Shown: one piece after another, positions 4,139 through 52,354 of the stretch | How the letters are laid out: every line of letters starts with the position of its first letter | How positions within the stretch are numbered: position 1 is the first letter of the stretch | IMG/VR virus record: IMGVR_UViG_3300026320_000002 | DNA from: a virus | Length of the DNA: 52,354 nucleotides | Reading direction: 5' to 3' (one strand) | Position numbers and translations under genes: made by a program | Notes under the pieces: generated by a model | What the model was told of the DNA's origin: nothing | The model's input: only the letters and a program-made list of their open reading frames with translations | The model's database searches: none

Positions 4139-4966
4139 ATGCCTACTCAAATCCTCCGCAATATCATGGGGCGGCTCCTCGGCCTGGGGCCGAACCACGA
4201 ACTGATCATGGCGGGCAGCAAGATCCTCTATGGCCACGGCTCGAACCTGGACGCGCAGGTGGACCTGGTCTCCGCTGTCCAGTGCCTGCTCCAGTGCGCG
4301 ATCCCCTTCATCTCTCCCTCGAGCGGGACGATGGGCAACAACGGGGCGCTCTCGGGAATCACGGCGCTCCGCCAGACCTATCCGGCCGCCTGGTTCGTGG
4401 TGCCGGCGAACTACATTTTTGCCGGCTCACTGGCCGGGACGTACTTCGGGATCTGCTCCTCGACCACCGCGGCCCAGCTCTTTGCGACCTCACCCACCAT
4501 CGTGGGTAACCAGATCCCGATCCCGACGAACCCCACCCCGTTCGTGTCCACCGGACCCGGTGCGGTCAGCCAGGTGACGGGCGCCAATGTGGCCGCGCTG
4601 GTGCTCTCGCTCCCGGGCGCTTCGATGGGCGCTCACGGCACCATTCGGATGAAGGGGCTGTTCACCAACAACAACAGCGCCGGCTCGAAGCTCGGGCAGA
4701 TGGGCTTCGGGTCCACGACCATTGCGGGCGCCTCGAATACGACCAACATCAGCCAGCCGGTCGATCACGAGATCAGGAACCGCGGGGTGCAAAACTCCCA
4801 GGTCAACGAGGCCGGCAGCGGCTACGTGGTGACCGCCGGCGCGCCGAACGAGGGTGCTGTGGATACGAGCGCGGCGGTGAACCTGGTCTTCTTCGAGCAG
4901 CTCGCCGTGGCCACCGACACCTGTCAGTGGGACTCGATCCGCATCGATCTGCTGCGCTCCCCGTAA
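4139..4966 (+). CDS. Hypothetical protein (structural block)
   Basis: 275 aa with a strong SD (taaggagcgctcATG) and high GC3. Confidence 0.65.
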   Translation: MPTQILRNIMGRLLGLGPNHELIMAGSKILYGHGSNLDAQVDLVSAVQCLLQCAIPFISPSSGTMGNNGALSGITALRQTYPAAWFVVPANYIFAGSLAGTYFGICSSTTAAQLFATSPTIVGNQIPIPTNPTPFVSTGPGAVSQVTGANVAALVLSLPGASMGAHGTIRMKGLFTNNNSAGSKLGQMGFGSTTIAGASNTTNISQPVDHEIRNRGVQNSQVNEAGSGYVVTAGAPNEGAVDTSAAVNLVFFEQLAVATDTCQWDSIRIDLLRSP

Positions 4967-4967
4967 G

Positions 4968-5315
4968 GTGGCCAGTGCAGGCAAGCGCGGCAGGGCTCCA
5001 GGGACTCCGAAAGCGGAGCCCTGGAAGCCGCCCGAGTATCGGATCGAGGACGCCTCGGCGCTCCAGCAGATCGCTTGCGGCACGGCAAGCGAGGCGCAGC
5101 AGCGCAATGGGTTCCGCTTTCTGGTCGAGATCCTCTGCGCGACGTATGATCTTTCGTATCGCAGCTCGAGCGCACTCGATACGGCGTTCGCGGAAGGCAA
5201 GCGCTTCGTGGGATTGCAATGTGTGAAGTTCGCAAATCTGAACCTGGCTGCGCTGCGCGGCCGGCAAACCGAACAGGGGAGCGCCCCGGAACCGAGGGAG
5301 AGGGAGAATGGCTGA
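4968..5315 (+). CDS. Hypothetical protein upstream of the scaffold gene
   Basis: 115 aa with a GTG start 1 nt after the upstream stop and moderately high GC3. The 3' end overlaps the scaffold start by 8 nt. Confidence 0.5.
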   Translation: MASAGKRGRAPGTPKAEPWKPPEYRIEDASALQQIACGTASEAQQRNGFRFLVEILCATYDLSYRSSSALDTAFAEGKRFVGLQCVKFANLNLAALRGRQTEQGSAPEPRERENG

Positions 5316-6477
5316 GGACAAAGGGGCAGGAGCAGGTGCCGGAGCGGGCGGCGGTGCTGGTGCTGGCGCCGGCGCTGGCGGCGCTGGTGGTGCAGGAGCT
5401 GGGGCCGGCGCCGGAGGTGGTGGTGGCACAGATGCTGCCGCCGTAGCGGCCGCCGCGGCTGCAGCTGCAGCGGCTGCTGCCGCAGCGGGCGGCGGTGCTG
5501 GTGCTGGCGCCGGCGCTGGCGGCGCTGGTGGTGCAGGAGCTGGGGCCGGCGCCGGAGGTGGTGGTGGCACAGATGCTGCCGCCGTAGCGGCCGCCGCGGC
5601 AGCAGCTGCAGCGGCTGCTGCCGCAGCGGGCGGTGGTGGCGGAGCCGGTGATGGGGCGGCTAAGCCCGGGGCGGGTGCCGCCTGGGCGGAGAACTGGCGC
5701 GAGACCTACTCCGGCACCGATGAGAAGAAGCTCGCCGCCCTGAAGCGTTACGCCTCCCCGAGCGATGCGCTCAACGCGCTCTTTGCCGCCCAGTCACGCA
5801 TCAGCGCCGGGGAGATCAAGAACCCGCTCCCGGCCAACGCCACGGCTGAGCAGCTGGCTGAATGGCGCAAGGAGCAGGGGATCCCCGCCACCGCGGCCGA
5901 GTACCTCGCGAACTTGCCCGCCGATGTGAAGGTCGAGGGGCACAACCAAGCGATGGCCGCAGCGCTGGTGGAGCGCATGCACAAGGTGAACGCCCCACCG
6001 GCCGCGGTCCAGGAGGGCCTGCGCTTCGTCACGGACTGGCAGGCCCAGGTGATCGAGAAGCGCCTGGAAGCCGATGAGACATTGCGCGGCAGCACCGAGG
6101 AGGCGCTGCGCGCGGAGTGGGGGAGTGAGTACAAGGCGAACCGCAACAACATCCTGTCTCTGATCTCCACCGCCCCGGAGGAGGTCGGAGAGGCGCTGCT
6201 CAATTCGCGCATGCCCGATGGCACGCCCTTCGTGGGGACGCCGGCCGCGGTCAAGTGGCTCGCCCACCTGGCGCGCCAGATCAATCCCTTCGGAGCGGTG
6301 ATCCCAGGGGCGGGAGCGGGCACGCCGATGGGCAACGTGGATGGGCGGATCGCGGAGATCGAGAAGTTCATGCACACTAACAACTCGGCCTACGTGAAAG
6401 ACGAGAAGATGCAGAAGGAATACAGGGATCTACTCGATGCCCAAGCCAACCTCAAGCAGCGCGGCGCCGCCGCGTAG
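5308..6477 (+). CDS. Putative capsid scaffolding protein with a low-complexity Gly/Ala N-terminus
   Basis: 389 aa with SD gggagagggagaATG. It sits between portal and major capsid as in T7-like order. The C-terminal two-thirds look helical and charged, and the N-terminal ~110 aa are poly-Gly/Ala. Confidence 0.6.
   Translation: MAEDKGAGAGAGAGGGAGAGAGAGGAGGAGAGAGAGGGGGTDAAAVAAAAAAAAAAAAAAGGGAGAGAGAGGAGGAGAGAGAGGGGGTDAAAVAAAAAAAAAAAAAAGGGGGAGDGAAKPGAGAAWAENWRETYSGTDEKKLAALKRYASPSDALNALFAAQSRISAGEIKNPLPANATAEQLAEWRKEQGIPATAAEYLANLPADVKVEGHNQAMAAALVERMHKVNAPPAAVQEGLRFVTDWQAQVIEKRLEADETLRGSTEEALRAEWGSEYKANRNNILSLISTAPEEVGEALLNSRMPDGTPFVGTPAAVKWLAHLARQINPFGAVIPGAGAGTPMGNVDGRIAEIEKFMHTNNSAYVKDEKMQKEYRDLLDAQANLKQRGAAA
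5344..5625 (+). repeat. Near-perfect 141-bp tandem duplication (2 copies, 5344-5484 and 5485-5625, plus the first bases of a third)
   Basis: gcgggcggcggtgctggtgctggcgccggc...gcagcggctgctgccgca recurs with a period of 141 nt (47 aa). I saw one mismatch (gcggctgcagct versus gcggcagcagct). Confidence 0.9.
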
Positions 6478-9529: not shown

Positions 9530-12280
9530 GTGCCACAGCAGACCCAGGCCACCCTGGCCTTCAACCGCGGGATCCTCTCGGATCTGGGGCTCGCGCGCAT
9601 TGATCTGACGCGCTATCGGATGGCCGCGCTCACCATGGTGAACTGGATCTGCAGGGTCCTGGGCAGCATGAGCCTGCGGCCCGGACTCGGGTACCTCACG
9701 GGCACCAAGAACAATCTGCTGGCCAAGGCCCTGCCTTTCGTCTTTTCCCACGATGATCTGGCGCGCATCGAGGTCACGCAGGGCACAATCCGCGTGCTCA
9801 TCTCCGATGCCCTGGTCACCCGGCCCGCCGTCACCGCCGTGATCACGAACGGCACCTTTGCGGGGAGTCTGGCCGGCTGGACGGATTCGGACGAGACCGG
9901 GGCGGCGAGCACCTGGAATGCCGGCGGGTTCGCCCAGCTCGTGGGCACGGGCACCAACAATGCGATCCTGGACCAGCAGGTCACGATCAACGAGAGCGGC
10001 ATCGAGCATGCCCTCCGGATCGTCATTACCCGCGGGCCCATCACCTTCCGCTGTGGCACCACCCAGGGCGATGACTCCCTGATCCACGAAACTTTTCTCG
10101 GCGTGGGCACACACTCCCTCACCTTCACCCCGGTGACCGGCTCGGTGTGGATCCGCTTTATGAACCCGAACATCCCGGCCGCCTACCTGGTATCGGTGGC
10201 GATCGAGGGGGCCGGGATCCTCGAGCTCCCCAACCCCTGGCTGAGCACGGACCTGGGCAACATCCGCTCGGCCCAGTCCGCTGATGTGACCTACGTCGCG
10301 GTCCCAGGCTACCAGCAGCGAAAGATTGAACGCCGCTCGCTCCGTTCCTGGTCGATCGTGCTGTACGAGCCCACGGACGGGCCGTTCCGGGTGCTCAATG
10401 TGACGCCCATCACCCTCACCGGGAGCGCGCTCTCAGGGGACATCACCGTCACGGCGAGCAAGCCGCTCTTTAAGCCCACCCAGGCCGGCGCGCTCTTTCG
10501 CATCGCCTCGGTCGGCCAGAACACCGCGGCCAGCATCTCCTCGGATAGCACCTTCACCGATCCGATCCGGGTCGATGGCATCGGGGATCAGCGCGCCTTC
10601 GCCTGGCAGGTCGCCGGCGTCTTCGTCGGGACGGTCACGCTGCAGGTGTCCGTGGGGGCGCCGGGCGCCTGGTCGGATGTGGCGAGCACCACGGTGCCGG
10701 CCTTCACCCCGGCCTACAACGACACCTTCGACAACCAGGTCATGTACTACCGCCTCGGCATCAAGGCGGGCCAGTACACCTCGGGCACTGCGGTGTGTAC
10801 CCTTTCCTTCAGCGCCGGTTCCATCACCGGGATCGTCAAGATCCGCTCCATCACGGATTCCACCCACGCGCAAGCCTCCGTGCTCGCCTCCCTCGGGGGC
10901 ACGACCGAGAGCGCGGACTGGTCGGAAGGCGCCTGGTCGGATTTCCGGGGATGGCCCCAGACGGTCAAGATCCACGAGGGGCGCCTGTGGTGGTTCGGGA
11001 TCACCATCTACGGCTCAGTGTCAGATGACTTCGAGAACTTCGATGACAACACGCTGGGGCCCAGCGCGCCAATCTCGCGCAGCATCGGGGAAGGGGCGAT
11101 CGAGAACATCTACTGGGCAGTCTCGCTCCAGCGGCTCCTGGTGGGCACCGCATCGGCGGAGATGAGCTGTCGCTCCTCCAGCCTCGATGAGCCCCTCACC
11201 ACCACCAACTTCGTGATCCGCCCCTCGAGCAGCCAGGGGTCCGATAACGTCGATGCGCTGCGCCTGGACAAGTTCGGGATCTTCGTGCAGATCGGCGGTG
11301 AGCGCGTGTTCAAGATGGAGATCGACTACTTCGTCCAGGACTACAAGGCCGAGGACCTCACGCTCCTGGTGCCCGGCCTCAATGTGGCCGGTGTAGTGCA
11401 GATTGCAGTACAGCGGAAGCCCGACACTCGATTGCACTGCCGCCGAGGCGATGGGAGCGTGGCGATCCTGGTGCTCGATGCGGCCGAGAACGTGCTCGCC
11501 TGGCAGGAGTGGGAGAGCCCCAACGGGTTCGTGGAGGACATCTCGATCCTCCCGGCGGTGAGCTCGAGCGAGGATCAGGTCTATTACATCGTGCGCCGCG
11601 TGATCTTCGGGGTGACGGTGCGCTACCACGAGAAGTGGGCGCTGGAGAGCCAGTGCACGGGGCTGACCGATGCGCGGCTCCTGGACTCGCACATCATCTA
11701 CTCGGGCGCCGCGGTGACGACGATCGGGGGACTGGCGAGCCTCGCCGGCCAGGTGGTCTCGGTGTGGGGCTGGAATAGCGCCGTGCCCTACATCGATGGG
11801 AACGGCAACACGGTGGGCCGGGACCTGGGCACCTTCACGGTGAGCGCCGGCGGGCAGATCAGCGGCCTGCCCTTCCAGGTGACTGATGCCTGCATCGGCA
11901 TTCCCTACACCGCGCCCTGGCAGTCGATGAAGCAGGCGTTCGCGGCCGCCATGGGTACCCCGCTCAACCAGCTCAAGCGCATTGACAAGCTGGGCCTGAT
12001 CCTGAAGAACACCCACGCGCTGGGCATCCAGACCGGCGCGGACTTCGATCACCTCGATGACCTGCCGCTCGTGGACCTGCCGGTGCTGCAATCGGCCCAG
12101 AGCCTGGAGCCCGGGGAGGCCAATTACGCGGACGTCGATGCGATCCTCAACACCTACGATTACCAGATGAGTGCCTTCGATGATGTCTGGTCGACCGACT
12201 CGCGGGTGTGCCTGCAGGCCGCTTCCCCAAGGCCCTGCACGGTGCTGGCCTTCGCCGTTGAGATGGCCACGGAGGGCTGA
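9530..12280 (+). CDS. Tail tubular protein B / nozzle (T7 gp12-like position)
   Basis: 916 aa with a GTG start, directly after the gp11-like gene. The call rests on size and synteny. Confidence 0.5.
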   Translation: MPQQTQATLAFNRGILSDLGLARIDLTRYRMAALTMVNWICRVLGSMSLRPGLGYLTGTKNNLLAKALPFVFSHDDLARIEVTQGTIRVLISDALVTRPAVTAVITNGTFAGSLAGWTDSDETGAASTWNAGGFAQLVGTGTNNAILDQQVTINESGIEHALRIVITRGPITFRCGTTQGDDSLIHETFLGVGTHSLTFTPVTGSVWIRFMNPNIPAAYLVSVAIEGAGILELPNPWLSTDLGNIRSAQSADVTYVAVPGYQQRKIERRSLRSWSIVLYEPTDGPFRVLNVTPITLTGSALSGDITVTASKPLFKPTQAGALFRIASVGQNTAASISSDSTFTDPIRVDGIGDQRAFAWQVAGVFVGTVTLQVSVGAPGAWSDVASTTVPAFTPAYNDTFDNQVMYYRLGIKAGQYTSGTAVCTLSFSAGSITGIVKIRSITDSTHAQASVLASLGGTTESADWSEGAWSDFRGWPQTVKIHEGRLWWFGITIYGSVSDDFENFDDNTLGPSAPISRSIGEGAIENIYWAVSLQRLLVGTASAEMSCRSSSLDEPLTTTNFVIRPSSSQGSDNVDALRLDKFGIFVQIGGERVFKMEIDYFVQDYKAEDLTLLVPGLNVAGVVQIAVQRKPDTRLHCRRGDGSVAILVLDAAENVLAWQEWESPNGFVEDISILPAVSSSEDQVYYIVRRVIFGVTVRYHEKWALESQCTGLTDARLLDSHIIYSGAAVTTIGGLASLAGQVVSVWGWNSAVPYIDGNGNTVGRDLGTFTVSAGGQISGLPFQVTDACIGIPYTAPWQSMKQAFAAAMGTPLNQLKRIDKLGLILKNTHALGIQTGADFDHLDDLPLVDLPVLQSAQSLEPGEANYADVDAILNTYDYQMSAFDDVWSTDSRVCLQAASPRPCTVLAFAVEMATEG

Positions 12281-12900
12281 TGGATCCCACCCTCATGGAC
12301 CCGCGCGCCGCACCTGCGAGCATCCTTCGCTCCCCGATCGAGCCGCCAGGCCCCCCGCTCGTGCGGCGCATGAAAAGCGCCACCTACACCCGCGAGAGCC
12401 TCGCGCAGGTGCGCGCCGATGGGATCGAGCAGCTCCTCGAGCTGCACTACCGGGAGATCGCGCACTTCCAGGATATTGCGCTCGACGTAGACTGGGAGAA
12501 GTACGAGCGGGCCGAGGCGAGCGGGCACCTGCGTGCCTTCATCGCCCGGGTCGATGGGCGGATGGTGGGCTACATGGCGATACTGGTCGATCACAACGGG
12601 CACTACCGCGGGAGCCTGCAGGCCGTCCAGGACGTGCTATTCATCGAGCCTCGGTGGCGCGGCGGGTGGCTCGCCTACCGCCTACTCCACTTTGCCCACC
12701 TCGCCCTCCTGGCCGAAGGGGTGCAGGTGGTGTACCAGCACATCAAGGCGCAGCACGATCACAGCCGATTGCTGCTCAAGATCGGCTACGAGCTCGTGGA
12801 TTTGATCCTCGCCAAGCGCCTCGATCGCGACGTCGCGCTGGCCAAGCACCTCTCGCGCATGGGCTCTGCCGAGCGCAGCGCACTTGAGGGAGGGGCGTAA
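12280..12900 (+). CDS. GNAT-family N-acetyltransferase in the internal-virion-protein region
   Basis: 206 aa. FIEPRWRGGWLAYRLLHFAHLALLAEGVQVV matches the GNAT motif-A pattern (R-x-x-G-x-x-x-A). The ATG overlaps the upstream TGA. Confidence 0.65.
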   Translation: MDPTLMDPRAAPASILRSPIEPPGPPLVRRMKSATYTRESLAQVRADGIEQLLELHYREIAHFQDIALDVDWEKYERAEASGHLRAFIARVDGRMVGYMAILVDHNGHYRGSLQAVQDVLFIEPRWRGGWLAYRLLHFAHLALLAEGVQVVYQHIKAQHDHSRLLLKIGYELVDLILAKRLDRDVALAKHLSRMGSAERSALEGGA

Positions 12901-13365
12901 ATGGGTGCCACCGCACTGATCGCCGCGACCGCCGTCACCGCGCTGAGCAAGATCGGGGCGGGCAACGCCAAGAAGGCCGAAGCCGACTACTCCGCCGGCG
13001 TGCTCGATCAGGAAGCCGGGCAGACCGTGGCGAGCAGCATCCAGGGCATGCTGATCGAGCGACGGCGGAAGGACCAGGTGGCGAGTGCCGCGAAGGCCTC
13101 GCTCGCCGCCAGCGGCGCCACCTCGACCGATCCGTCCGCCGTCAAGGTACGCGGCCAGATCGAGGGAGCTGGGGAGTACCAGGCCCTCACGAAACTCTAC
13201 GAGGGGGAGGATCAGGCCATCCAGCTGCGCTCCAAGGCGACGAGCCTGCGCTCCACCGGGAAGGCGGATCAGACCGCCGGTTATTTCGGGGCGGTCTCCA
13301 GCATCTTCAGCGGCGGCGGGTCCTGGTTCGACAAGTACGGAGGGGACGCGGCCACCGCGACCTAA
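12901..13365 (+). CDS. Small internal virion protein (T7 gp14-like slot) with an N-terminal hydrophobic segment
   Basis: 154 aa starting MGATALIAATAVTALSKIGAG, with SD gagggaggggcgtaaATG. Confidence 0.5.
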   Translation: MGATALIAATAVTALSKIGAGNAKKAEADYSAGVLDQEAGQTVASSIQGMLIERRRKDQVASAAKASLAASGATSTDPSAVKVRGQIEGAGEYQALTKLYEGEDQAIQLRSKATSLRSTGKADQTAGYFGAVSSIFSGGGSWFDKYGGDAATAT

Positions 13366-13368
13366 CCC

Positions 13369-15660
13369 ATGGCGGACATCCCCGACTACACCGCACTTGG
13401 CACCCCGCAGGCCCCAAGCCCCGCGCCGGCGCGCCGGCTCGCGCTCCAGGGGGATCTGTCCGGTGAGGTGCTGGCGCAGGCCGGTGAGGAGCTCGGACGG
13501 TCCCTTGATACTCTGGGGACCGACATCTACGAGCGCCAGCAGAAGGATCACATCGCGGCGGTGAACCTCGCGCGGGCGCAATCGAGCAACGCGAGCCTCG
13601 ATCACCAGATCGCCGTAGAGAGCGCCGCGGAGCAGACGCGCCAGGGCATCGCCAATGGGGAGATCCCCTACGAGGAGGCGCGGCAGCACTTCAACGAGCA
13701 GGTCGCCGCGATCCCCCCGCCCAACATCCCGAACCTGGACGCGGTGGGGACCGAGAACCAGAACAAGTACCTGGTGCGCAGCATCGCCACGGCGGGCTTC
13801 AAGGTCGACGCCGCGGTGGACGGCGCTCGTCGCCAGGACTTCAAGGACCAGTTCATCGGGAACATGCAGCGCCTCGATAAGCTCGCCGGCATGCCCGGGG
13901 CCGACATCGAGGCGATCAACGCCCAGGCCGATGCCTTCCGCCCGCTCGCCATCAAGGCGGGCGTCCCGGCCGTTGAGGTGGACAAGGCGATTGCGGACGT
14001 GAAGGACTCCAACTGGTTCAACCAGGCCGATCAGCGCGTCATGCTCGCGAAGGACAACTGGGGGGCGCTCAAAGTGCTCCAGCACGATCTGAGCGCCGCC
14101 GACGGCTACTACGCCGGGCGCCTCAAGACCGCGCGCCGCGATGAGTTGCTGCGCAGCGTGGTCAATGACCAGCTGATCCTCGAAAACCGCGCCGAGCACG
14201 AGCACGATAAGCGCGAGGCGAAAGCGGGCCAGGCCATGCGCCAGGCGGGCGAGATGATCTCGAGCACCATGCCGCTCTCCGCCCAGAACTGGGCGGAGCT
14301 GGGCGCCGAGGTTCAGGGCACCAGCTACGAGGCGGAGTTCGCCGGGCTCCAGAAAAACGAGGAGAAGGTCCAGGAGGTGGTGCGCATGCCACCTGCTGAT
14401 CAGGCCCGCTATGTGCAGCAGGAGGCAGGCAAGCTCGATGCGGCGCAGCCCGGCACGATGATCGAGCGGCTCCAGGCACGGGCGAACTTCGAGCGCCTGC
14501 AAAGCGCGGTCAACCAGAACTCGAAGCTGATGACCGACTCCCCGATCCTGTGGTCGGCCAATCGCAACGGGACGGAGGTCGCGGAGATCGACTTCACGGG
14601 CCTCGCCACCGAGCAGGGCCAGGCGCAGATCGGCCAGGCGCTCGCCGATCGGATGGCCACCATCCGCGCACTCCAGGCCAAGAACGGCACCCAGATCGGG
14701 GATAAGCCGATCCTGCCCCAGGAGGCGGCCGGATTGACGAGCTACCTGCAGAGCATCGAGCCCTACAAACGCGCCCTGGTGCTCACCGCGCTCCGCCGCT
14801 CCACGAAGGATGATCAGACCTACCAGGCCACCATGGATCAGATCGCCCCGCACTCGCCCGTTACCGCGATCGCCGGCACCATGGTGGGCGCCTCGGCCCC
14901 CTCACGGACGCCCGTCTGGTTCAACCCCGTCTACGCCCCGAAGCTCGATGATGTGCAGCTCGTGCTGCACGGGGAGGAACTCCTCAACCCCACCTCGGCG
15001 GGCAAGGCCGCTGGGCTCGAGACCGAGAAAGGGGGCCTGAAAGCCCCGATGCCCATGCCCCCGGACACGGGCCCGAATGGGCTGCGCACCGTCTTCGGGA
15101 ACGCCACCTCGGACATGTTCCGCGATAACACCCAGGGGTTCGATGCGTACTTCTCGGTCTTCAAGGACGCCTACGCCGCGCTCCTGGAGCGCAAGGGCAA
15201 CATGAAGGGGACCCCGGACACCCAGGCACAACGCCAGGCGCTCCAGATCGCCCTGGGGCAGATGACGACGTTCAACGGCAACCAGGTCTCAGTCCCCCGC
15301 GGCATGGATCCCTCCCAGTTCACCATGCTGGTGCGCGCCGCGGTCAGTCAGCAGGCCAAGGACCTGAAAGCCCCCGCCGACTGGCAGCAGCGCCTCTCGG
15401 GCTACCAGCTCGTGGATCTGGGGCGCACGCTGGGGAGCGGGCGCTTCGGGATCACGATCGGTGGGCTGCCCATGGTGAACCCGAACGGCAAGGGCTACTT
15501 CGCCATAGACCTGCGCGGCCAGTACGATCCGTCGCGCGGCGCCACGCCGGCGCACGAGCGCGTCCGGCCCAATGTGCCCACCGAGGGGTTCATCTACGAT
15601 CCGGTGGCCCGAAAGCTCATCCCGGATCCGGGCTGGGCGCGCACGAGCGCAACGCCATGA
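13369..15660 (+). CDS. Internal virion / ejection protein (T7 gp15-like slot)
   Basis: 763 aa, helical and charged composition. The call rests on size and position. Confidence 0.5.
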   Translation: MADIPDYTALGTPQAPSPAPARRLALQGDLSGEVLAQAGEELGRSLDTLGTDIYERQQKDHIAAVNLARAQSSNASLDHQIAVESAAEQTRQGIANGEIPYEEARQHFNEQVAAIPPPNIPNLDAVGTENQNKYLVRSIATAGFKVDAAVDGARRQDFKDQFIGNMQRLDKLAGMPGADIEAINAQADAFRPLAIKAGVPAVEVDKAIADVKDSNWFNQADQRVMLAKDNWGALKVLQHDLSAADGYYAGRLKTARRDELLRSVVNDQLILENRAEHEHDKREAKAGQAMRQAGEMISSTMPLSAQNWAELGAEVQGTSYEAEFAGLQKNEEKVQEVVRMPPADQARYVQQEAGKLDAAQPGTMIERLQARANFERLQSAVNQNSKLMTDSPILWSANRNGTEVAEIDFTGLATEQGQAQIGQALADRMATIRALQAKNGTQIGDKPILPQEAAGLTSYLQSIEPYKRALVLTALRRSTKDDQTYQATMDQIAPHSPVTAIAGTMVGASAPSRTPVWFNPVYAPKLDDVQLVLHGEELLNPTSAGKAAGLETEKGGLKAPMPMPPDTGPNGLRTVFGNATSDMFRDNTQGFDAYFSVFKDAYAALLERKGNMKGTPDTQAQRQALQIALGQMTTFNGNQVSVPRGMDPSQFTMLVRAAVSQQAKDLKAPADWQQRLSGYQLVDLGRTLGSGRFGITIGGLPMVNPNGKGYFAIDLRGQYDPSRGATPAHERVRPNVPTEGFIYDPVARKLIPDPGWARTSATP

Positions 15661-18600
15661 CCGATCTCAGCCCCTACGAGGAGGAGCGCCTGAGCAACGC
15701 CGGGCCTGCGATCAATCCGTGGGAGGGCCCGGCGCCGGTGAGCACCTGGTCCGGCTTCCTGCACGATGATGACTATGGCTACGCCGCCCCGCTCGCCCGG
15801 ATCCTCGAGGTGCCAGGCCACGCGGTGGCGGCCGGTGAGGGCATGCTCGCCGGCCTGGCGCACGATTCCTATGGTCTCGTCGATCATGTCCTCGGGGGGA
15901 TCCCCGGCGTGCACAAGTACGTCACGCAGCCGATCATCGATGAGGCGGACTGGTGGCGGAACGATGCCAAGGAGCGCGTCCAGGCCCTCACCCCCAGCGC
16001 CACGCAGGTGGGCTCGGCGATCCAGACGGGCCACTCCCTGCTCACCGCCCTGACCGAGGCGGGCTTCGGCGGTGCGGCGGCCGGCCCGTACCTCGCCGCC
16101 GCGACGGTCGGGGGCAGCCAGGGCTACGAGCGGCGTGCGCAGCTGGAGGCTTCTGGCGTGGCCCCGGCGCCGGCCGGGTTTATCGGATTGGAGACCGCCG
16201 CGACGAGCGCCGCCGGGGTCCTCACCCCAGGGCTCGGTGGGGTAGGGACCAGCCTGATGGCCCGCTTGCTCACCGGTGCGGGCGCGAACGTGGGCTTCGG
16301 GGTGGCCAATCGCTACGCTGATCACCTGACCCTCGAGGCGGCCGGCTACCCGGACATGGCCCAGCAGCAGAAGGTCTGGGACGGCTACTCGATGCTCTTC
16401 GATGCGGTCCTGGGTGCCGGATTCGGCGGGCTGGGGCACCTGCACCACCAGGCGGGTATGCGCGATCTGAGCGCCCGCCTGGCCGCGCTACGCCAGATTC
16501 CGGGCGTGGAGGATGCCGTCATGGCCGCGCAGCTGGGCCTGCGCGCTCAAGGACTTGGGCCCGGGATCCCCGCGGATCCGGCCGCTGCGGCCGCGCACCA
16601 CGCCGCGCTCGAGAAGGCCACCGAGGATCTGATCAACGGGCAGCCGGTGGATGTGTCCGGCACCGGGGTCGACACGGCCAACTTCGTGCCCTTCTACCAT
16701 GGCTCCCCGCACGAGTTCACCTCGTTCGAGGCCGGTAGGATCGGCACCGGGGAGGGCGGCGACAGTTTCGGGCACGGCATCTACCTGGCCGAATCCCGAG
16801 CCGTGGCCGACAGCTACGCCGAAGCGCTAGGCGCGAGGAGCATCCGGCTGGGTGAGAAGGTGGTCGCTCCGAACGATTTCCCGATCGACAGTCCCCAGCG
16901 CCAGGCCCTCAGCGCGCTGATGAACCACAACGGCGTCATTCCCGAAGCGATTGCAGGCCTGCGCGCTCAGGCCAAGGGTGTGGAGGACAGCGCTCATTTC
17001 GAGGCCGCCGCAAAGTGGCTGGAGAAAAACCGCAAGCAGATCAGCTCCACGATCGGGAACGTCTACCAGGTCCGCGTGCCCTCCGAGGCGGTCGGGCGCA
17101 TGCTCGACTGGAACGCGCCCCTGAAGGACCAGCCACCCGCGGTGCAGCAGTACATGCACTCACTCGGCCAGGAGAAGCTCGGAATGCTGGTCAACCACGG
17201 GGTGCCGCTGAAGGACTACTCGGTGCTCGATCGAAAAACCGGGAAGGATCTTTACGAGGGGCTCGCCCTTCAGCATCTCCGCACCGCCGGGGAGGGGGCC
17301 GATCACGCCGCCTTCGCCTCGGGCGAGCTGCAGCGCTCCGGTATCCCGGGCCTGCGCTACCTCGATGCCTTTTCCCGCAGCGGAGAGGCGCTCAAGGCGC
17401 CCACCCGCAACGCCGTGCTGTTCGAGGAGAAGCTCGCACAGGTCGCCGCCCGCGAAGGGGCCCGTCCCTACCAGGCGCCCGAGCAGCCCATCAGCACCGC
17501 CGGACTTGATCCACGTGAAACAATCCTCGTGAAGTCCTTCCAGGACGCGGGGTTACTGGAGGCGCAGCGCAACGTCGAGGCGCTCGAGCAGGCCCTCAAC
17601 GTGCGCCTGGGCCGCGGAGCACCGGAAAGGATTACCGCACCATTGCGGCCCGAGGGCACCCCGAGCTCCCCCTCCCCGACCGCACCGGTGGGCAAGCGCT
17701 GGTATGCCGATCGTGGGGCGATCCCAGGGGAGCCGGCGCAGTACCTGGACGTGCAGGGCGATGATCTGGACACCGCCAAGGCGGTGATCGTCGAGCGCCC
17801 CATGGAGGGGACGAGCAACTCCACCTGGGAGGCGCTCCTGCCTGGCGGCCAGAGCCTCGGGGTCTTCGACACTGAGGAGGAGGCCGGCCGCGCGGCCGAG
17901 GTCGCGGTTGACAAAACCGGCACCACGTCGGGTTCGGTTGCCTCGGAGCTCGCAGCTGCTCGAAAGGCCCCGCCTCCGGGCTTCAAGATCCACCCGGATG
18001 AGATCCCGCGGGCCGACCCGGGCAAGCTCACCGAGGCGCAGCGCGCGATCGAGACTCGCTTCGCCGAGCAGATCGCCCGGGACCCGGAAGCCGCCGAGCA
18101 CCAGTACGCCCAGATTGAGGAGACTGATGGCGGGCGGATCCTCAACACCGACACCGCGCGCGAGCTCTCGGAGGACTACCTGAACGACAGAAGCCAGTCA
18201 GCGGCCGTGCATGAGCCGTCCAGCTGGCTGATCAAGCGCCTTTACGCCCGGATGCTGAAAGAGGCCCCGAAGCCGGGCTTCGATCCGCTGGTGCTGTTCA
18301 TGGCTGGCGGCACGGGGGCGGGCAAGACCAGCATGGTGCGCGCCACCGCCGGGGAGCTGTTCAGCAGGGCGCAGATCATCTACGACACGAACATGAGCGG
18401 CCTGGATGGGGCGATCGGCAAGATCAACCAGGCCCTCGATGCCGGCAAGCGCGCGGATGTGGTGTACATCTACCGCGATCCGGCTGAGGCCCTCGCCCAC
18501 GGCGCTCTCACGCGCGCCATGAAGCAGGAGGCCCAGTGGGGTTCGGGGCGGACCGTGCCGCTCGAGGAGCACACCAATACGCACGTGGGCTCCAATCATG

Positions 18601-20306
18601 TGATCCGCCTGGTCGCGAGCCACTTCGAGGGTCACACGGACGTCGGCCTGCGATATGTTGACAACGCGCGCGGCGCGGGCAAACAGGCCGAAGTTCCTTT
18701 GGAGCAGATCCCCCGCCTGGAGTACAATGTCACCCGTGAGCAAGTCGCGAAAACCCTCGAGGACGAGTACGCCGCGGGGCGCATCTCGGAAGCCGTCTAC
18801 CATGGATTCGGGGGCACCGGCCCCGCCGGCGAGCCTGGACGAGCTGGCGCAGCCGGCGGCGCAGGACCAGCGGATGAAGCAGCTCCTGCAGAACATGAGC
18901 CGCAACGTGGGCCAGGACGTGCTGACGAGCTAGGCGCCACCCGAAGCGTCTACACCGCCGCGGGCCGCCAGATCGAGGTGCGCCCGAAGCTGATCGAAGC
19001 GGCCGATCTCACCACCAGCGACAAGCCTGGCTACCCACAGGATCTGCAACCACGCCAGCGCGGAGAGCGCACCGCGCTCGCCAGCCAGGTGCAGGATATG
19101 GCCCGGAACCTCAAGCCCGAGATGCTGGGCCAGAGCGCCGAGGCCGATCGCGGCGCCCCGATCGTGGGGGCGGATAACGTGGTGGAAAGTGGGAACGGGC
19201 GGGTCATGGCGCTGCGCCAGGTGTACGAATCCCTCCCTGAGCAGAGCACTGCCTACCGTAAGTTCCTGACTGACAGCGGTTACGACATTGCTGGGATGAA
19301 GGAACCGGTGCTGGTGCGCGAGCGCGTCACACCCATGAGCCCGGCCGAGCGCTCCGCCTTCACGGGCGAGGCGAACGTCGGGACCACGGCCACTTATTCA
19401 CCGGTGGAACAAGCGCAGGCGGATGCGAAGCTCCTCGACAGCGGTACGCTGGCGAAGATGGCGGGGGCGGACCTCACCACCTACACGAACGCGGCCTTTC
19501 TTCGGGACTTCGTATCCGGCCTGGCGCCCTCGGAGCGCTCCGCCGTGATGAACCCGGACGGCACGATCAGCCAGGCGGGGGTGCGACGGGTGCAATCGGC
19601 CATCCTGGCCAAGGCCTACGGCGGTACGCCCGAGTCCAATGCCACTCTGGGCCGGTTGCTCGAGTCGACCGAGACGGGCCTCAAATCGACCCTCAACGCC
19701 CTGGTGGACGCAGCTCCCGCCTACGCGAGGCTCAAGCAGATGATCGAGGAGGGGACGATCGGGCGCGAGTACGACATCGCCCCGGCGATCGTGCAGGCGG
19801 TCGAAGATGTGGCGCGCCTGCAGCTCACCGGCCAGAGCCTGACCGAGCACTTCGCCCAGGCCGACCTGCTGAGCCCCAAGGCACTCGCCACCCAGGCCTT
19901 CTACGACAAGGCCGGTGAGCGCCTGGCCGGTCGGGACAAGGCCGCCGCGGCGCTCATCCGCTATGCCGACCAGGCGATGGCGCAGCGATTGAATCAGGGG
20001 CAACTGTTCGGGGACCCCCCGGCCAGCCCCACCGAGCTGCTGCAGAACGCCAAAAAGCCCGAAACCGGGGATCTGTTCGGACTGCGAACTAAATCCGGGG
20101 AGCTCGCCCCCGGGAGCATCGTGGTGAGCGCGGCGCGCTCGGCGATCGAGGAGCGGCCGAATATGGAACTGCCCGATGAGACTGGCCAGGTGTACCGGGC
20201 AAAGGCGGCGCTGCTCGCCACCGCGGAGGCGGATCGAAGCACCTCGGAGCGGGCAGCGCCGGCGATTGAGGCGGCCACGGACTGCTTCTTGAGGAAAGGG
20301 CCATGA
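15657..20306 (+). CDS. Large multidomain (polyvalent) internal virion / ejection protein in the T7 gp16-like slot
   Basis: 1549 aa with ATGA coupling at both ends. It has a Gly/Ala-rich hydrophobic N-terminal ~330 aa followed by ART-like, zeta-kinase-like and ParB-like modules, listed as separate sub-features. Confidence 0.7.
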   Translation: MTDLSPYEEERLSNAGPAINPWEGPAPVSTWSGFLHDDDYGYAAPLARILEVPGHAVAAGEGMLAGLAHDSYGLVDHVLGGIPGVHKYVTQPIIDEADWWRNDAKERVQALTPSATQVGSAIQTGHSLLTALTEAGFGGAAAGPYLAAATVGGSQGYERRAQLEASGVAPAPAGFIGLETAATSAAGVLTPGLGGVGTSLMARLLTGAGANVGFGVANRYADHLTLEAAGYPDMAQQQKVWDGYSMLFDAVLGAGFGGLGHLHHQAGMRDLSARLAALRQIPGVEDAVMAAQLGLRAQGLGPGIPADPAAAAAHHAALEKATEDLINGQPVDVSGTGVDTANFVPFYHGSPHEFTSFEAGRIGTGEGGDSFGHGIYLAESRAVADSYAEALGARSIRLGEKVVAPNDFPIDSPQRQALSALMNHNGVIPEAIAGLRAQAKGVEDSAHFEAAAKWLEKNRKQISSTIGNVYQVRVPSEAVGRMLDWNAPLKDQPPAVQQYMHSLGQEKLGMLVNHGVPLKDYSVLDRKTGKDLYEGLALQHLRTAGEGADHAAFASGELQRSGIPGLRYLDAFSRSGEALKAPTRNAVLFEEKLAQVAAREGARPYQAPEQPISTAGLDPRETILVKSFQDAGLLEAQRNVEALEQALNVRLGRGAPERITAPLRPEGTPSSPSPTAPVGKRWYADRGAIPGEPAQYLDVQGDDLDTAKAVIVERPMEGTSNSTWEALLPGGQSLGVFDTEEEAGRAAEVAVDKTGTTSGSVASELAAARKAPPPGFKIHPDEIPRADPGKLTEAQRAIETRFAEQIARDPEAAEHQYAQIEETDGGRILNTDTARELSEDYLNDRSQSAAVHEPSSWLIKRLYARMLKEAPKPGFDPLVLFMAGGTGAGKTSMVRATAGELFSRAQIIYDTNMSGLDGAIGKINQALDAGKRADVVYIYRDPAEALAHGALTRAMKQEAQWGSGRTVPLEEHTNTHVGSNHVIRLVASHFEGHTDVGLRYVDNARGAGKQAEVPLEQIPRLEYNVTREQVAKTLEDEYAAGRISEAVYHGFGGTGPAGEPGRAGAAGGAGPADEAAPAEHEPQRGPGRADELGATRSVYTAAGRQIEVRPKLIEAADLTTSDKPGYPQDLQPRQRGERTALASQVQDMARNLKPEMLGQSAEADRGAPIVGADNVVESGNGRVMALRQVYESLPEQSTAYRKFLTDSGYDIAGMKEPVLVRERVTPMSPAERSAFTGEANVGTTATYSPVEQAQADAKLLDSGTLAKMAGADLTTYTNAAFLRDFVSGLAPSERSAVMNPDGTISQAGVRRVQSAILAKAYGGTPESNATLGRLLESTETGLKSTLNALVDAAPAYARLKQMIEEGTIGREYDIAPAIVQAVEDVARLQLTGQSLTEHFAQADLLSPKALATQAFYDKAGERLAGRDKAAAALIRYADQAMAQRLNQGQLFGDPPASPTELLQNAKKPETGDLFGLRTKSGELAPGSIVVSAARSAIEERPNMELPDETGQVYRAKAALLATAEADRSTSERAAPAIEAATDCFLRKGP
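16683..17432 (+). other. ADP-ribosyltransferase-like module (H-Y-E type, polyvalent-protein ART) within the 1549-aa protein
   Basis: aa ~343-592: FVPFYHGSPHEFTSF...GDSFGHGIYLAESRAVADSY...GIPGLRYLD...RNAVLFEE. Confidence 0.5.
18129..18806 (+). other. Zeta-toxin-like P-loop kinase module within the 1549-aa protein
   Basis: aa ~825-1050: GRILNTDTARELSEDYLNDRSQSAAVHEPSSWLIKRL...LVLFMAGGTGAGKTS (Walker A at nt 18306-18332)...VVYIYRDP. Confidence 0.6.
18942..19436 (+). other. ParB/sulfiredoxin-fold (ddrB-ParB-like) module within the 1549-aa protein
   Basis: aa ~1096-1260: IEAADLTTSDKPGYPQDLQPRQRGERTALASQV...LKPEMLG...GAPIVGADNVVESGNGRVMALRQVY. Confidence 0.55.
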
Positions 20307-24188: not shown

Positions 24189-24560
24189 ATGAAAATTGAC
24201 CTGACCCCGAAGCTGCGCACGATCGACAACAAGCCCTTCCAGCAGCCCTCGCCCGACGGCAAGAGCCTGGTGGACTGGGACCTGGACCTGAAGGATGCGA
24301 TCTCCGGGGCACTCCTCGCCCAGGTGCAGGGCGACTTCCAGCTCCCCGTGCAGGCGAAGCTGAAGATCTACCGGCTCGCCAAGCGCATCGATCAGGCGAA
24401 CGGGACGATCAACCTCGAAAGCGAGGAGATCACCCTGATCAAGGAGCGCACGGCCCTCATCTACGGCAACCACGTGTTCGGGGTGATCGCCGATCTCCTG
24501 GAAGGCGAAGGCGCCCCGGCCCCGCCGGCTCCTCCGGCCACCCCACCGGGGCCGCCATGA
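24189..24560 (+). CDS. Hypothetical protein with a Pro-rich C-terminus
   Basis: I started it at ATG 24189 (MKIDLTPK, SD agagga) rather than the track start at 24138. 123 aa. Confidence 0.55.
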   Translation: MKIDLTPKLRTIDNKPFQQPSPDGKSLVDWDLDLKDAISGALLAQVQGDFQLPVQAKLKIYRLAKRIDQANGTINLESEEITLIKERTALIYGNHVFGVIADLLEGEGAPAPPAPPATPPGPP

Positions 24561-25006
24561 ACCTCTCGGAGCACTTCACACTCGAGGAGATGGAACGGAG
24601 CGACCTGGCGCTCCGTAAGGGGATCGACAACTCCGCGCCGCCCGAAGTGATCCCGCAGCTGATCCGCCTGTGCACCACGCTCCTGGAGCCCATCCGCACG
24701 CTCCTTGGTGTCCACCTGCACACCAACAGTGGGTATCGGTGCAAGCTGCTCAACACCCTCGTGGGCTCGACCGCCGCGCACAGCGCACACCTGGACGGGC
24801 GGGCAGATGACCTGATCCCGATCGGGATGGATCTGCGCGCGGCATTTGACAAGATCCGCTTGAGCGAGCTGCCCTACGATCGGCTCATCATCGAATGCGG
24901 GGCATGGCTGCATTGTGCAATCGCGGTGGAGGGGGTCCCGCCTCTCCGAAAAGCCGAGTACGCCACAGGCACTCCGGGGCACTGGGTCTACACTCTCGTT
25001 CCATAG
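24557..25006 (+). CDS. Endolysin, peptidase M15 family (zinc D,D- or L,D-peptidase)
   Basis: 149 aa. FTLEEM...SGYRCKLLNTLVGSTAAHSAHLDGRADDL carries the M15 signatures SGYRC..LN and H..G.A.D. ATGA-coupled. Confidence 0.85.
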   Translation: MNLSEHFTLEEMERSDLALRKGIDNSAPPEVIPQLIRLCTTLLEPIRTLLGVHLHTNSGYRCKLLNTLVGSTAAHSAHLDGRADDLIPIGMDLRAAFDKIRLSELPYDRLIIECGAWLHCAIAVEGVPPLRKAEYATGTPGHWVYTLVP

Positions 25007-52129: not shown

Positions 52130-52354
52130 GTGGGCGCCACCGCTTCACTCTTCACAGGGCTCGGTCTGGTCGGAGGCGGTGTCGTGGGCGGCGCGGCCAA
52201 CAAGGGCCCGCTGGCCAGCATCTTCCACCCGCGCACTCAGCCGCTCCCGAAGGTCCCACCGATGCCCGACCAGCTGGCCCTTGACCAGGCGGCCCAGCGC
52301 AAGGCGGCCCTCGAGGCGTCCAGGCAGACGGGCCGGGCGAGCACGATCCTCTCC
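52130..52354 (+). CDS. 5' part of the junction-spanning small ORF, with a Gly-rich hydrophobic N-terminus. It continues at 128..163.
   Basis: GTG 52130. VGATASLFTGLGLVGGGVVGGAANKG...QRKAALEASRQTGRASTILS. The window ends exactly on a codon boundary. Confidence 0.55.
   Translation, partial: MGATASLFTGLGLVGGGVVGGAANKGPLASIFHPRTQPLPKVPPMPDQLALDQAAQRKAALEASRQTGRASTILS
52228..52354. repeat. Terminal direct overlap, copy 2. Identical to 1-127.
   Basis: See the feature at 1-127. Confidence 0.95.

Follow-up and report, generated by a model that had tools for sequence, protein, structure and literature searches.

Polyvalent proteins are widespread, yet as a concept they are almost wholly computational. 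Those of phages and conjugative elements were described by Iyer, Burroughs, Anand, de Souza and Aravind in 2017, and polyvalent proteins with an ADP-ribosyltransferase (ART), a zeta-like kinase and a DdrB-ParB domain were predicted to be delivered together with the invading DNA (PMC5512222). The same study already noted the fusion of a DdrB-like ParB domain to a lysozyme domain in Acinetobacter prophages (PMC5512222). DdrB of phage P1 is one of six Dar proteins, which reside inside the head and are ejected along with the DNA (PMC12810830), and in both T7 and epsilon15 ejection proteins make up a core (PMC5850374, PMC8954989). In the ng_zeta1 toxin of Neisseria gonorrhoeae, sequence blocks are swapped, which places the catalytic Asp56 upstream of Lys115 in the P-loop (Rocker et al. 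2018, PMC5923241). The substrates of this toxin are UDP-MurNAc, UDP-GlcNAc and UDP-glucose, each phosphorylated at the 4'-OH (PMC5923241). Here we describe a gene from IMG/VR virus record IMGVR_UViG_3300026320_000002. The window, i.e., the whole stretch of 52,354 nucleotides (nt) that was analyzed, contains an open reading frame (ORF) at positions 15657-20306 that encodes 1549 amino acids (aa) plus a stop, a protein of about 165 kDa. The ORF had been reported in an initial annotation made without database searches; it is present in the ORF list, and its translation contains every motif quoted there.

The 1549-aa protein has at least two distinct effector-type domains in one ORF and is phage-encoded amid virion genes. 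As in other polyvalent proteins, several unrelated effector-type domains are found on one polypeptide encoded among late virion genes. The ART of the H-Y-D clade, the zeta-like kinase and the DdrB-like ParB domain are all catalogued components (PMC5512222), and the orthologs display extensive cassette variation. Thus the initial reading as a polyvalent protein holds, as three enzyme families are found in one virion-block ORF. However, the proposal that this is an undescribed system does not, since the components are in the published catalog (PMC5512222) and the Alcaligenes phage Piluca and the Acinetobacter phage TPWB-05 already have an SLT transglycosylase and a DdrB-ParB domain in the same slot. 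The polyvalent strategy is already described, and the 1549-aa protein is a rare new example of it. What is new is the trio of ART, kinase and ParB, the placement of the kinase in the ng_zeta1 subclass, and the recognition that the carrier belongs to the epsilon15 gene-16 family, for which an N-domain, a C-tail and a cargo bay are now defined. Two differences from the published polyvalent proteins should be noted. No MPTase or other processing peptidase was found in the 1549-aa protein, and the zeta-like kinases of the earlier study are in conjugative elements, or in MuF fusions in phages, and not on an epsilon15 gene-16 carrier (PMC5512222). The value of the locus is therefore that of a test case and not of a new principle.

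The carrier is recognized by its two ends. In BLASTP searches the N-domain matches the proteins encoded at the same gene position (slot proteins) of phiV10 (600 aa, E 8e-22), Pseudomonas phage YA3 (640 aa, E 3e-25) and Yersinia phage YeP5 (430 aa, E 7e-29). The phiV10 slot protein, p19, is the homolog of epsilon15 gp16 and is annotated as similar to epsilon15 p16. Alignment shows that the homology stops at a common G-x-P-V-D-V boundary motif. Three PHROG families without known function (1145, 14422 and 11561) cover aa 79-336. A tblastn search of phages with the N-terminal 340 aa returned only the slot proteins of Yersinia phages YeP4-6, a profile search with the N-domain detected no PDB relative, and neither the N-domain nor the C-terminal third has a significant Pfam match at a permissive threshold; NCBIfam gave no match for the 1549-aa protein. 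The N-terminus had been termed Gly/Ala-rich and hydrophobic. The first term is correct (20% Ala and 15% Gly in aa 100-345), but the second is overstated, and no classical transmembrane segment is predicted for this region, as no 19-residue window rises above a Kyte-Doolittle value of 1.13.

The last ~45 residues of the 1549-aa protein are also common to slot proteins. A hidden Markov model (HMM) of the C-tail was trained on the tails of the 1549-aa protein, of Piluca and TPWB-05, and of three close relatives described below (P0001, P0002 and P0004), and was searched against 775 six-frame ORFs of seven other, independent loci. The first seven of the 775 ORFs by rank are the seven slot proteins, each matched at its very C-terminus, and for five the E value is <= 2e-4. 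With a homologous N-domain, the C-tail motif and a position between gp15-like and gp17-like genes, the 1549-aa protein is, by these sequence characters, an epsilon15 gene-16-type internal virion protein with retained N-domain and C-tail. Both elements are also present in short slot proteins, and in relatives the SLT and ParB domains are found between them; thus the enzymes sit in a bay between two carrier elements.

The initial annotation had assigned the ORF to the slot of T7 gp16. It is correct that the ORF is in the internal/ejection block after the tail tubular genes and that its product, like T7 gp16, is large and of variable size. However, the gene order is that of epsilon15 and phiV10, the ORF is not the last of the block but is followed by a gp17-like gene, and the protein has neither an N-terminal transglycosylase nor predicted transmembrane helices. 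Membership in the T7 gp16 family is ruled out, as no gp16 or SLT family is among the Pfam and PHROG matches, and the resemblance is positional only. Reviews likewise treat the link between epsilon15 and T7 gp16 as positional (PMC8954989). The statement that the protein has no lytic transglycosylase is borne out, with no SLT or lysozyme family matched in it.

The best-supported cargo is the ParB module, which was correctly identified at the outset. PF18763 (ddrB-ParB) matches aa 1103-1223 with an E value of 8.1e-32 and 110 bits, at a cut-off of 27.6, and aa 1091-1454 align with residues 25-407 of P1 DdrB at 31% identity (E 2e-40). The family phrog_5143 extends over aa 1093-1489 (E 2e-61). The motifs YPQ(D/E)LQPR.R and GAPI.G.DN.VESGNGR and a YR motif are invariant in the 1549-aa protein, Piluca, TPWB-05 and P1 DdrB, and the GNGR residue R1182 and Y1200 are conserved in the latter three. 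The DdrB-like helical region always goes along with the ParB domain. A search of PDB with the ParB profile found no solved structure detectably related by sequence. P1 DdrB differs in that it is a protein of its own (995 aa), for which a C-terminal metallopeptidase is predicted and whose packaging needs DarA and Hdf; among the window ORFs that were scanned, a subset of all ORFs, no homologs of DarA, DarB or Hdf turned up. Among the closest described proteins are the slot proteins of Piluca (CPT_Piluca_047, 956 aa) and TPWB-05 (949 aa), which have the same gene position, N-domain, DdrB-ParB domain, helical region and C-tail. Residues 1093-1548 of the 1549-aa protein align with Piluca residues 523-954 (E 5e-51). 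Unlike the 1549-aa protein, these two have the SLT lytic transglycosylase where the former has the ART, a short module termed here module X, and the kinase.

The kinase was also correctly recognized as zeta-toxin-like, with K890 as the Walker-A Lys. PF06414 (Zeta_toxin) matches with an E value of 1.8e-12 and 47.6 bits (cut-off 22.3), the best stretch being aa 904-990, and a PDB sequence search with the whole protein matched ng_zeta1 (6eph) only. A kinase profile of five sequences aligns with residues 35-270 of this toxin (E 2.9e-10). The AlphaFold model of the kinase (predicted local distance difference test, pLDDT, 76) has 6eph as its first Foldseek match (E 1.1e-9, template modeling (TM) score 0.62), followed by classical zeta (1gvn), AvrRxo1 and PezT. 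As in ng_zeta1, the topology is block-swapped, with the Asp upstream of the P-loop; Asp56 aligns with D832 (ILNTDTARE) and Lys115 with K890 (GGTGAGKTS), and both residues are invariant in five orthologs. Thus, from the alignment and the model, the kinase is placed in the block-swapped ng_zeta1 subclass of zeta toxins, with its predicted catalytic Asp upstream of the P-loop. The two proteins differ in that identity is only ~15% in the structural alignment, the ng_zeta1 C-terminal domain is absent from the kinase module, and the module is embedded in a virion protein, whereas ng_zeta1 is part of a toxin-antitoxin pair. An epsilon antitoxin partner was not noticed, the neighbors being virion proteins, and no sequence search for epsilon-like proteins was made.

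Evidence for the ART module comes largely through its homologs. The direct match to PF18760 (ART-PolyVal) comprises aa 345-390 and, with an E value of 8.3e-6 and 27.1 bits, falls below the cut-off of 31.2. A word-indexed homolog search with the ART segment alone gave 3 matches only. An exhaustive phmmer search with aa 335-640 gave 11,627 homolog cluster representatives at E <= 1e-3, which range from single-domain proteins of ~350 aa to giant proteins of up to 7242 aa. With an ART profile, 1727 proteins were found at E <= 1e-10, and PF18760 is among the precomputed matches of ~103 of the best 120 listed. We take membership in the ART-PolyVal family to be established by transitive homology. The module was rightly called ART-like, but not with the H-Y-E triad proposed for it. 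That triad, with the E of NAVLFEE, is ruled out; the position is outside the conserved columns and displays D, N, P or S among the relatives inspected. It is replaced by D570 of RYLD, and alignments of 65 and 81 sequences have H348, Y376 and D570 without exception, with S573 and R574 invariant or nearly so. The clade was described with H in strand 1, Y in strand 2 and D in strand 5 by Iyer et al. 2017 (PMC5512222). In the AlphaFold model (pLDDT 86.5) H348, Y376 and D570 lie on matching strands, and a large helical insert splits the core. The model has 31 matches in BFVD at E <= 1e-3 (best 3.5e-17), many of them annotated as ART-PolyVal or large polyvalent protein, and the top ~26 PDB matches are nearly all ART-fold toxins (diphtheria-like, MbcT, cholix, ExoA/exotoxin A, RES). 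An ART fold is consistent with the model, if weakly supported. A full-text literature search found no paper describing an experimentally characterized ART-PolyVal enzyme.

A stand-alone member of the ART family, ~387 aa long, is found in Sulfitobacter phage phiGT1 (locus L010, positions 4918-6081), between a portal-adjacent protein and the scaffold gene. Given this head-block member, the many family members of ~350 aa may also be head-packaged.

Pro/Ala/Gly-rich linkers at aa ~650-680, 757-790 and 1053-1092 separate the modules. The initial four-part layout omitted a connector, module X, the DdrB-like helical region and the C-tail (Table 1). Module X, about 85 aa long, is missing in three of the four close relatives (P0001-P0003) and is 74% identical to that of the fourth (P0004), versus 53% for the flanking kinase. 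It has no significant Pfam match at a permissive threshold, and jackhmmer over the 258 proteins gathered found it in P0004 only.

The trio is rare. A search of 5.8 billion protein clusters found only four proteins with the whole architecture, P0001-P0004, all from Logan assemblies, with best local BLASTP identities to the 1549-aa protein of 46-88%. Contigs were retrieved for two of the four (L001, encoding P0004, and L002, encoding P0002), and both have the same synteny. The five orthologs are 54-72% identical overall, and H348, Y376, D570, D832, K890 and the GNGR Arg are all invariant. The ART, zeta and ParB modules occur in P0001-P0004 with or without extra inserts, a cassette-like variation. 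P0002 has an insert of ~265 aa between kinase and ParB (aa ~1047-1312), the C-terminal part of which is weakly GNAT-like, and P0004 has at the same junction an unrelated insert of ~180 aa (aa ~1091-1299) without a Pfam family match. In the P0004 insert, a Cys...His...Asp pattern (QCTGFA...GGHDFAVADG) hints at a papain-like fold.

Elsewhere the bay is empty or differently filled, and the slot proteins span 430 to 1768 aa. Those of YeP5, phiV10, YA3 and two IMG/VR loci have little or no recognizable cargo, and those of Piluca and TPWB-05 consist of N-domain, SLT transglycosylase (Pfam), ddrB-ParB and C-tail. Among 50,697 GenBank phage records, the kinase module is found in one, at the C-terminus of an 878-aa protein of a Manatee Spring metagenomic phage, the ART variant is detectable by tblastn in five, and none has the trio of ART, kinase and ParB. 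A scan of IMG/VR and GTDB genomes for close relatives with the single protein found nothing. Profile scans of the same collections gave an ART match in one Alcaligenaceae metagenome-assembled genome fragment and N-domain matches in four IMG/VR loci; in the two of these four that were examined, the slot proteins are short (572 and 615 aa). The IMG/VR scan for the kinase module gave a fragment only. The same carrier is thus found empty, with SLT and ParB, or with ART, kinase and ParB, which shows the border between carrier and cargo and gives catalytic residues to mutate.

Selection on the parts was estimated against P0002 as the ratio of non-synonymous to synonymous substitution rates (dN/dS). 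In this rough Nei-Gojobori comparison dS is near saturation and the values are indicative only: 0.10 for ParB, 0.17 each for the N-domain and the DdrB-like region, 0.26 for the C-terminal segment including the tail (aa 1455-1549), 0.32 for the kinase and 0.5-0.9 for the ART. The ART is the fastest-evolving part, with 37-52% identity to P0002 and a saturated dS.

We consider it probable that the 1549-aa protein is an epsilon15 gene-16-type carrier that is ejected with the DNA, and that its ART, kinase and DdrB-like cargo acts early in the host. Packaging, ejection and enzyme activity are what we infer for it. The N-domain and C-tail would direct the protein into the particle alongside the other internal proteins. 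At infection it would exit via the tail with or ahead of the DNA, like the core proteins of T7 and epsilon15 and the Dar proteins of P1, and the modules, set apart by their linkers, would fold again inside the host and be active at an early stage. The ART may then modify a host target using NAD+, the kinase may phosphorylate a UDP-sugar (such as UDP-MurNAc or UDP-GlcNAc) or another nucleotide-type small molecule, and the DdrB-like module may take the part that DdrB has in the Dar anti-restriction set of P1. Enzymes of these three types depend on NAD+, ATP and UDP-sugars, and NTPs or DNA, which points to the cytoplasm as the site of action. Iyer et al. proposed that zeta-like kinases in polyvalent proteins weaken the wall and so ease DNA entry (PMC5512222). 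However, the action of zeta toxins is slow and growth-dependent, so that another nucleotide-type substrate or a late role is equally possible. If delivery is true, podovirus ejection proteins can carry cytoplasmic enzymes, and zeta-type kinases would be linked to phage entry or counter-defense.

Several points weigh against delivery of active enzymes. A 165-kDa protein must cross the tail channel unfolded and then refold, and no MPTase processing peptidase that would separate the modules was found in the 1549-aa protein. The location of gp16 in the epsilon15 particle is not settled, and one review assigns the epsilon15 core to gp17 (PMC5850374). With regard to the ART, the direct PF18760 match spans profile positions 8-48, a third of the model, and is below the Pfam cut-off; the PDB matches of the structure model are weak (E >= 0.04, none <= 1e-3, TM 0.25-0.39); and the fast evolution of the module could reflect relaxed constraint instead of an arms race. 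In the kinase, R953, K956 and R965 are offset by 1-2 alignment positions from Arg175 and Arg181 of ng_zeta1.

A further-reaching reading, which we put forward tentatively, is that the N-domain and C-tail serve generally as a carrier for delivery, with a cargo bay prone to recombination, and that ART, kinase and DdrB-like module are an injected counter-defense set directed against NAD+/nucleotide-based immunity and restriction, and not against the cell wall. The bay would then hold interchangeable cargo, comprising SLT, ART, ng_zeta1-type kinase, GNAT-like and Cys/His-type inserts, and DdrB-ParB. Were this true, phages would have in this carrier an equivalent of the modular cargo effectors that secretion systems use, and possibly a vehicle for engineered protein delivery.

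Alternatively, the modules could act in the producing cell or in assembly, as late host shut-off, as help to lysis through a drain on peptidoglycan precursors, or in capsid morphogenesis, with incorporation into the virion incidental or absent. This seems unlikely to us, but it has some merit. The gene is among late structural genes and, by position, is expressed with them; zeta kinases lyse cells by blocking peptidoglycan synthesis over tens of minutes (PMC5923241), a timing that suits late infection better than entry; and DarA and Hdf of P1 are tied to head morphogenesis (PMC12810830). A late role does not explain why the modules lie between two elements common to the short slot proteins of the internal block, or why the bay of relatives holds an SLT transglycosylase, an entry-type enzyme. 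It is also at odds with the ParB part, whose homolog in P1 is the N-terminal half of DdrB, a head protein that is ejected along with the DNA (PMC12810830).

Still less probable is that the cargo is structural bulk, i.e., decayed enzyme domains that fill or shape the internal core without catalysis. The divergence of the ART among orthologs (dN/dS near 0.5-0.9), its score below the Pfam cut-off and the freedom of slot-protein size to vary, from 430 to 1768 aa, would be expected of such filling, but the six putative catalytic residues (H348, Y376, D570, D832, K890 and the GNGR Arg) are invariant in the five orthologs and the wider families, and the zeta (dN/dS 0.32) and ParB (0.10) modules are under purifying selection. 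We give as little credence to a component of the tail hub or tube that remains with the particle and whose enzymes act outside or in the periplasm: the Piluca depositors annotate the gp15-, gp16- and gp17-like proteins as tail tubular, tail and pilot proteins, and relatives carry SLT, a periplasmic activity, but NAD+, ATP and UDP-sugars are cytoplasmic, the ART and kinase would be without substrates in the periplasm (general biochemistry), and P1 DdrB, to which the ParB part is homologous, leaves the head with the DNA.

Table 1. Features of the gene for the 1549-aa protein and of adjacent genes, in window coordinates
Feature	Position	Strand	Basis
Whole gene (epsilon15 gene-16-type internal virion protein with polyvalent cargo)	15657..20306	+	ORF list, translation
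Conserved Gly/Ala-rich N-domain, aa ~100-344	15954..16688	+	BLASTP, PHROGs, alignment
ART-PolyVal-type ADP-ribosyltransferase module with large helical insert, aa 345-602	16689..17462	+	homologs, model
Predicted ART triad H348, Y376, D570	16698-16700, 16782-16784, 17364-17366	+	alignments
Conserved helical connector, aa 603-655 (LDPRETILVKSFQDAGLLEAQRNVEALEQAL)	17463..17621	+	conserved in five orthologs
Module X, aa ~660-757	17634..17927	+	only here and in P0004
Zeta-toxin-type P-loop kinase, ng_zeta1 subclass, aa ~790-1052	18024..18812	+	Pfam, PDB profile, Foldseek
Predicted catalytic D832; Walker-A K890	18150-18152; 18324-18326	+	alignment to ng_zeta1
ddrB-ParB domain, aa 1103-1223 (YPQDLQPRQR, GAPIVGADNVVESGNGR; R1182 at 19200-19202)	18963..19325	+	Pfam
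DdrB-like helical region, aa 1224-1454	19326..20018	+	P1 DdrB alignment, phrog_5143
Conserved C-terminal tail, aa ~1500-1549 (...ELPDETG...AIEAATDCFLRKGP)	20154..20306	+	tail HMM
GNAT-like ORF	12280-12900	+	PHROG/Pfam; acetyltransferase matches sub-threshold
phrog_418 internal virion protein	12901-13365	+	PHROG/Pfam
epsilon15 gp15-like protein, 763 aa	13369-15660	+	PHROG/Pfam
epsilon15 gp17-like virion protein, 866 aa	20303-22903	+	phrog_684, E 2e-234

The ATG of the gene overlaps the stop codon of the gp15-like ORF (ATGA; …GCCATGACC…), and its own stop codon overlaps the ATG of the gp17-like ORF (ATGA; …GCCATGAAG…); thus the three genes form a tightly coupled block. The order of genes is tubular A-like, tubular B-like, GNAT-like, phrog_418, the 763-aa protein, the 1549-aa protein and the phrog_684 protein. 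A matching order is found in phiV10 (epsilon15-type), YA3, YeP5, Piluca and TPWB-05, and with L001 and L002 included the synteny is held in seven related genomes. The gp17-like protein is 35-37% identical to its counterparts in phiV10, YA3 and YeP5 across 97% of its length. PDB sequence searches found no relatives of the gp15-like or gp17-like proteins. The G+C content is even, 0.68-0.70 along the ORF and 0.64-0.70 along the window. In L001 (9205-9774) and L002 (9450-10004) a gene for an Asp/Arg beta-hydroxylase (PF05118) is found between the gp15-like and polyvalent genes; the window has no gene at this position, as the two ORFs overlap directly. A GNAT-like ORF heads the internal-protein block also in L001, L002, YA3, Piluca, TPWB-05 and phiGT1, and the phiGT1 depositors liken its product to T7 gp13 and P22 gp14.

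An identical direct repeat of 127 nt is present at the window ends (1-127 and 52228-52354), and the window encodes small and large terminase, portal, capsid, tail and lysis genes. These point to a complete phage genome of ~52.2 kb (~52,227 bp), circular or terminally redundant, and the repeat may be a simple assembly overlap. The window is thus a complete ~52.2-kb epsilon15-like phage of 66% G+C. A near-identity DNA search against GenBank phages gave no match to it. Pfam searches with ten neighboring ORFs of the structural block matched only the GNAT-like ORF and a protein at 24557-25006 of the Peptidase_M15_3 family (E 6e-13), probably the endolysin, and no transglycosylase was seen; a peptidoglycan peptidase is thus present in the lysis region.

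Two minor observations concern the head genes. Immediately after the portal, at 1815-2765, is an ORF of 316 aa with weak matches to collagen-like minor tail and tail fiber families (E ~1e-7), and a collagen-like repeat protein is unusual at a head-gene position. In addition, tandem-like repeats are found at 5296-5679, within ORF 5308-6477. This ORF encodes a 389-aa protein of phrog_3742, a family without known function, in the expected position of the scaffold protein. Two 141-nt copies, at 5326-5466 and 5467-5607, are 96% identical, and weaker shifted copies are present at 12-42-nt spacings.

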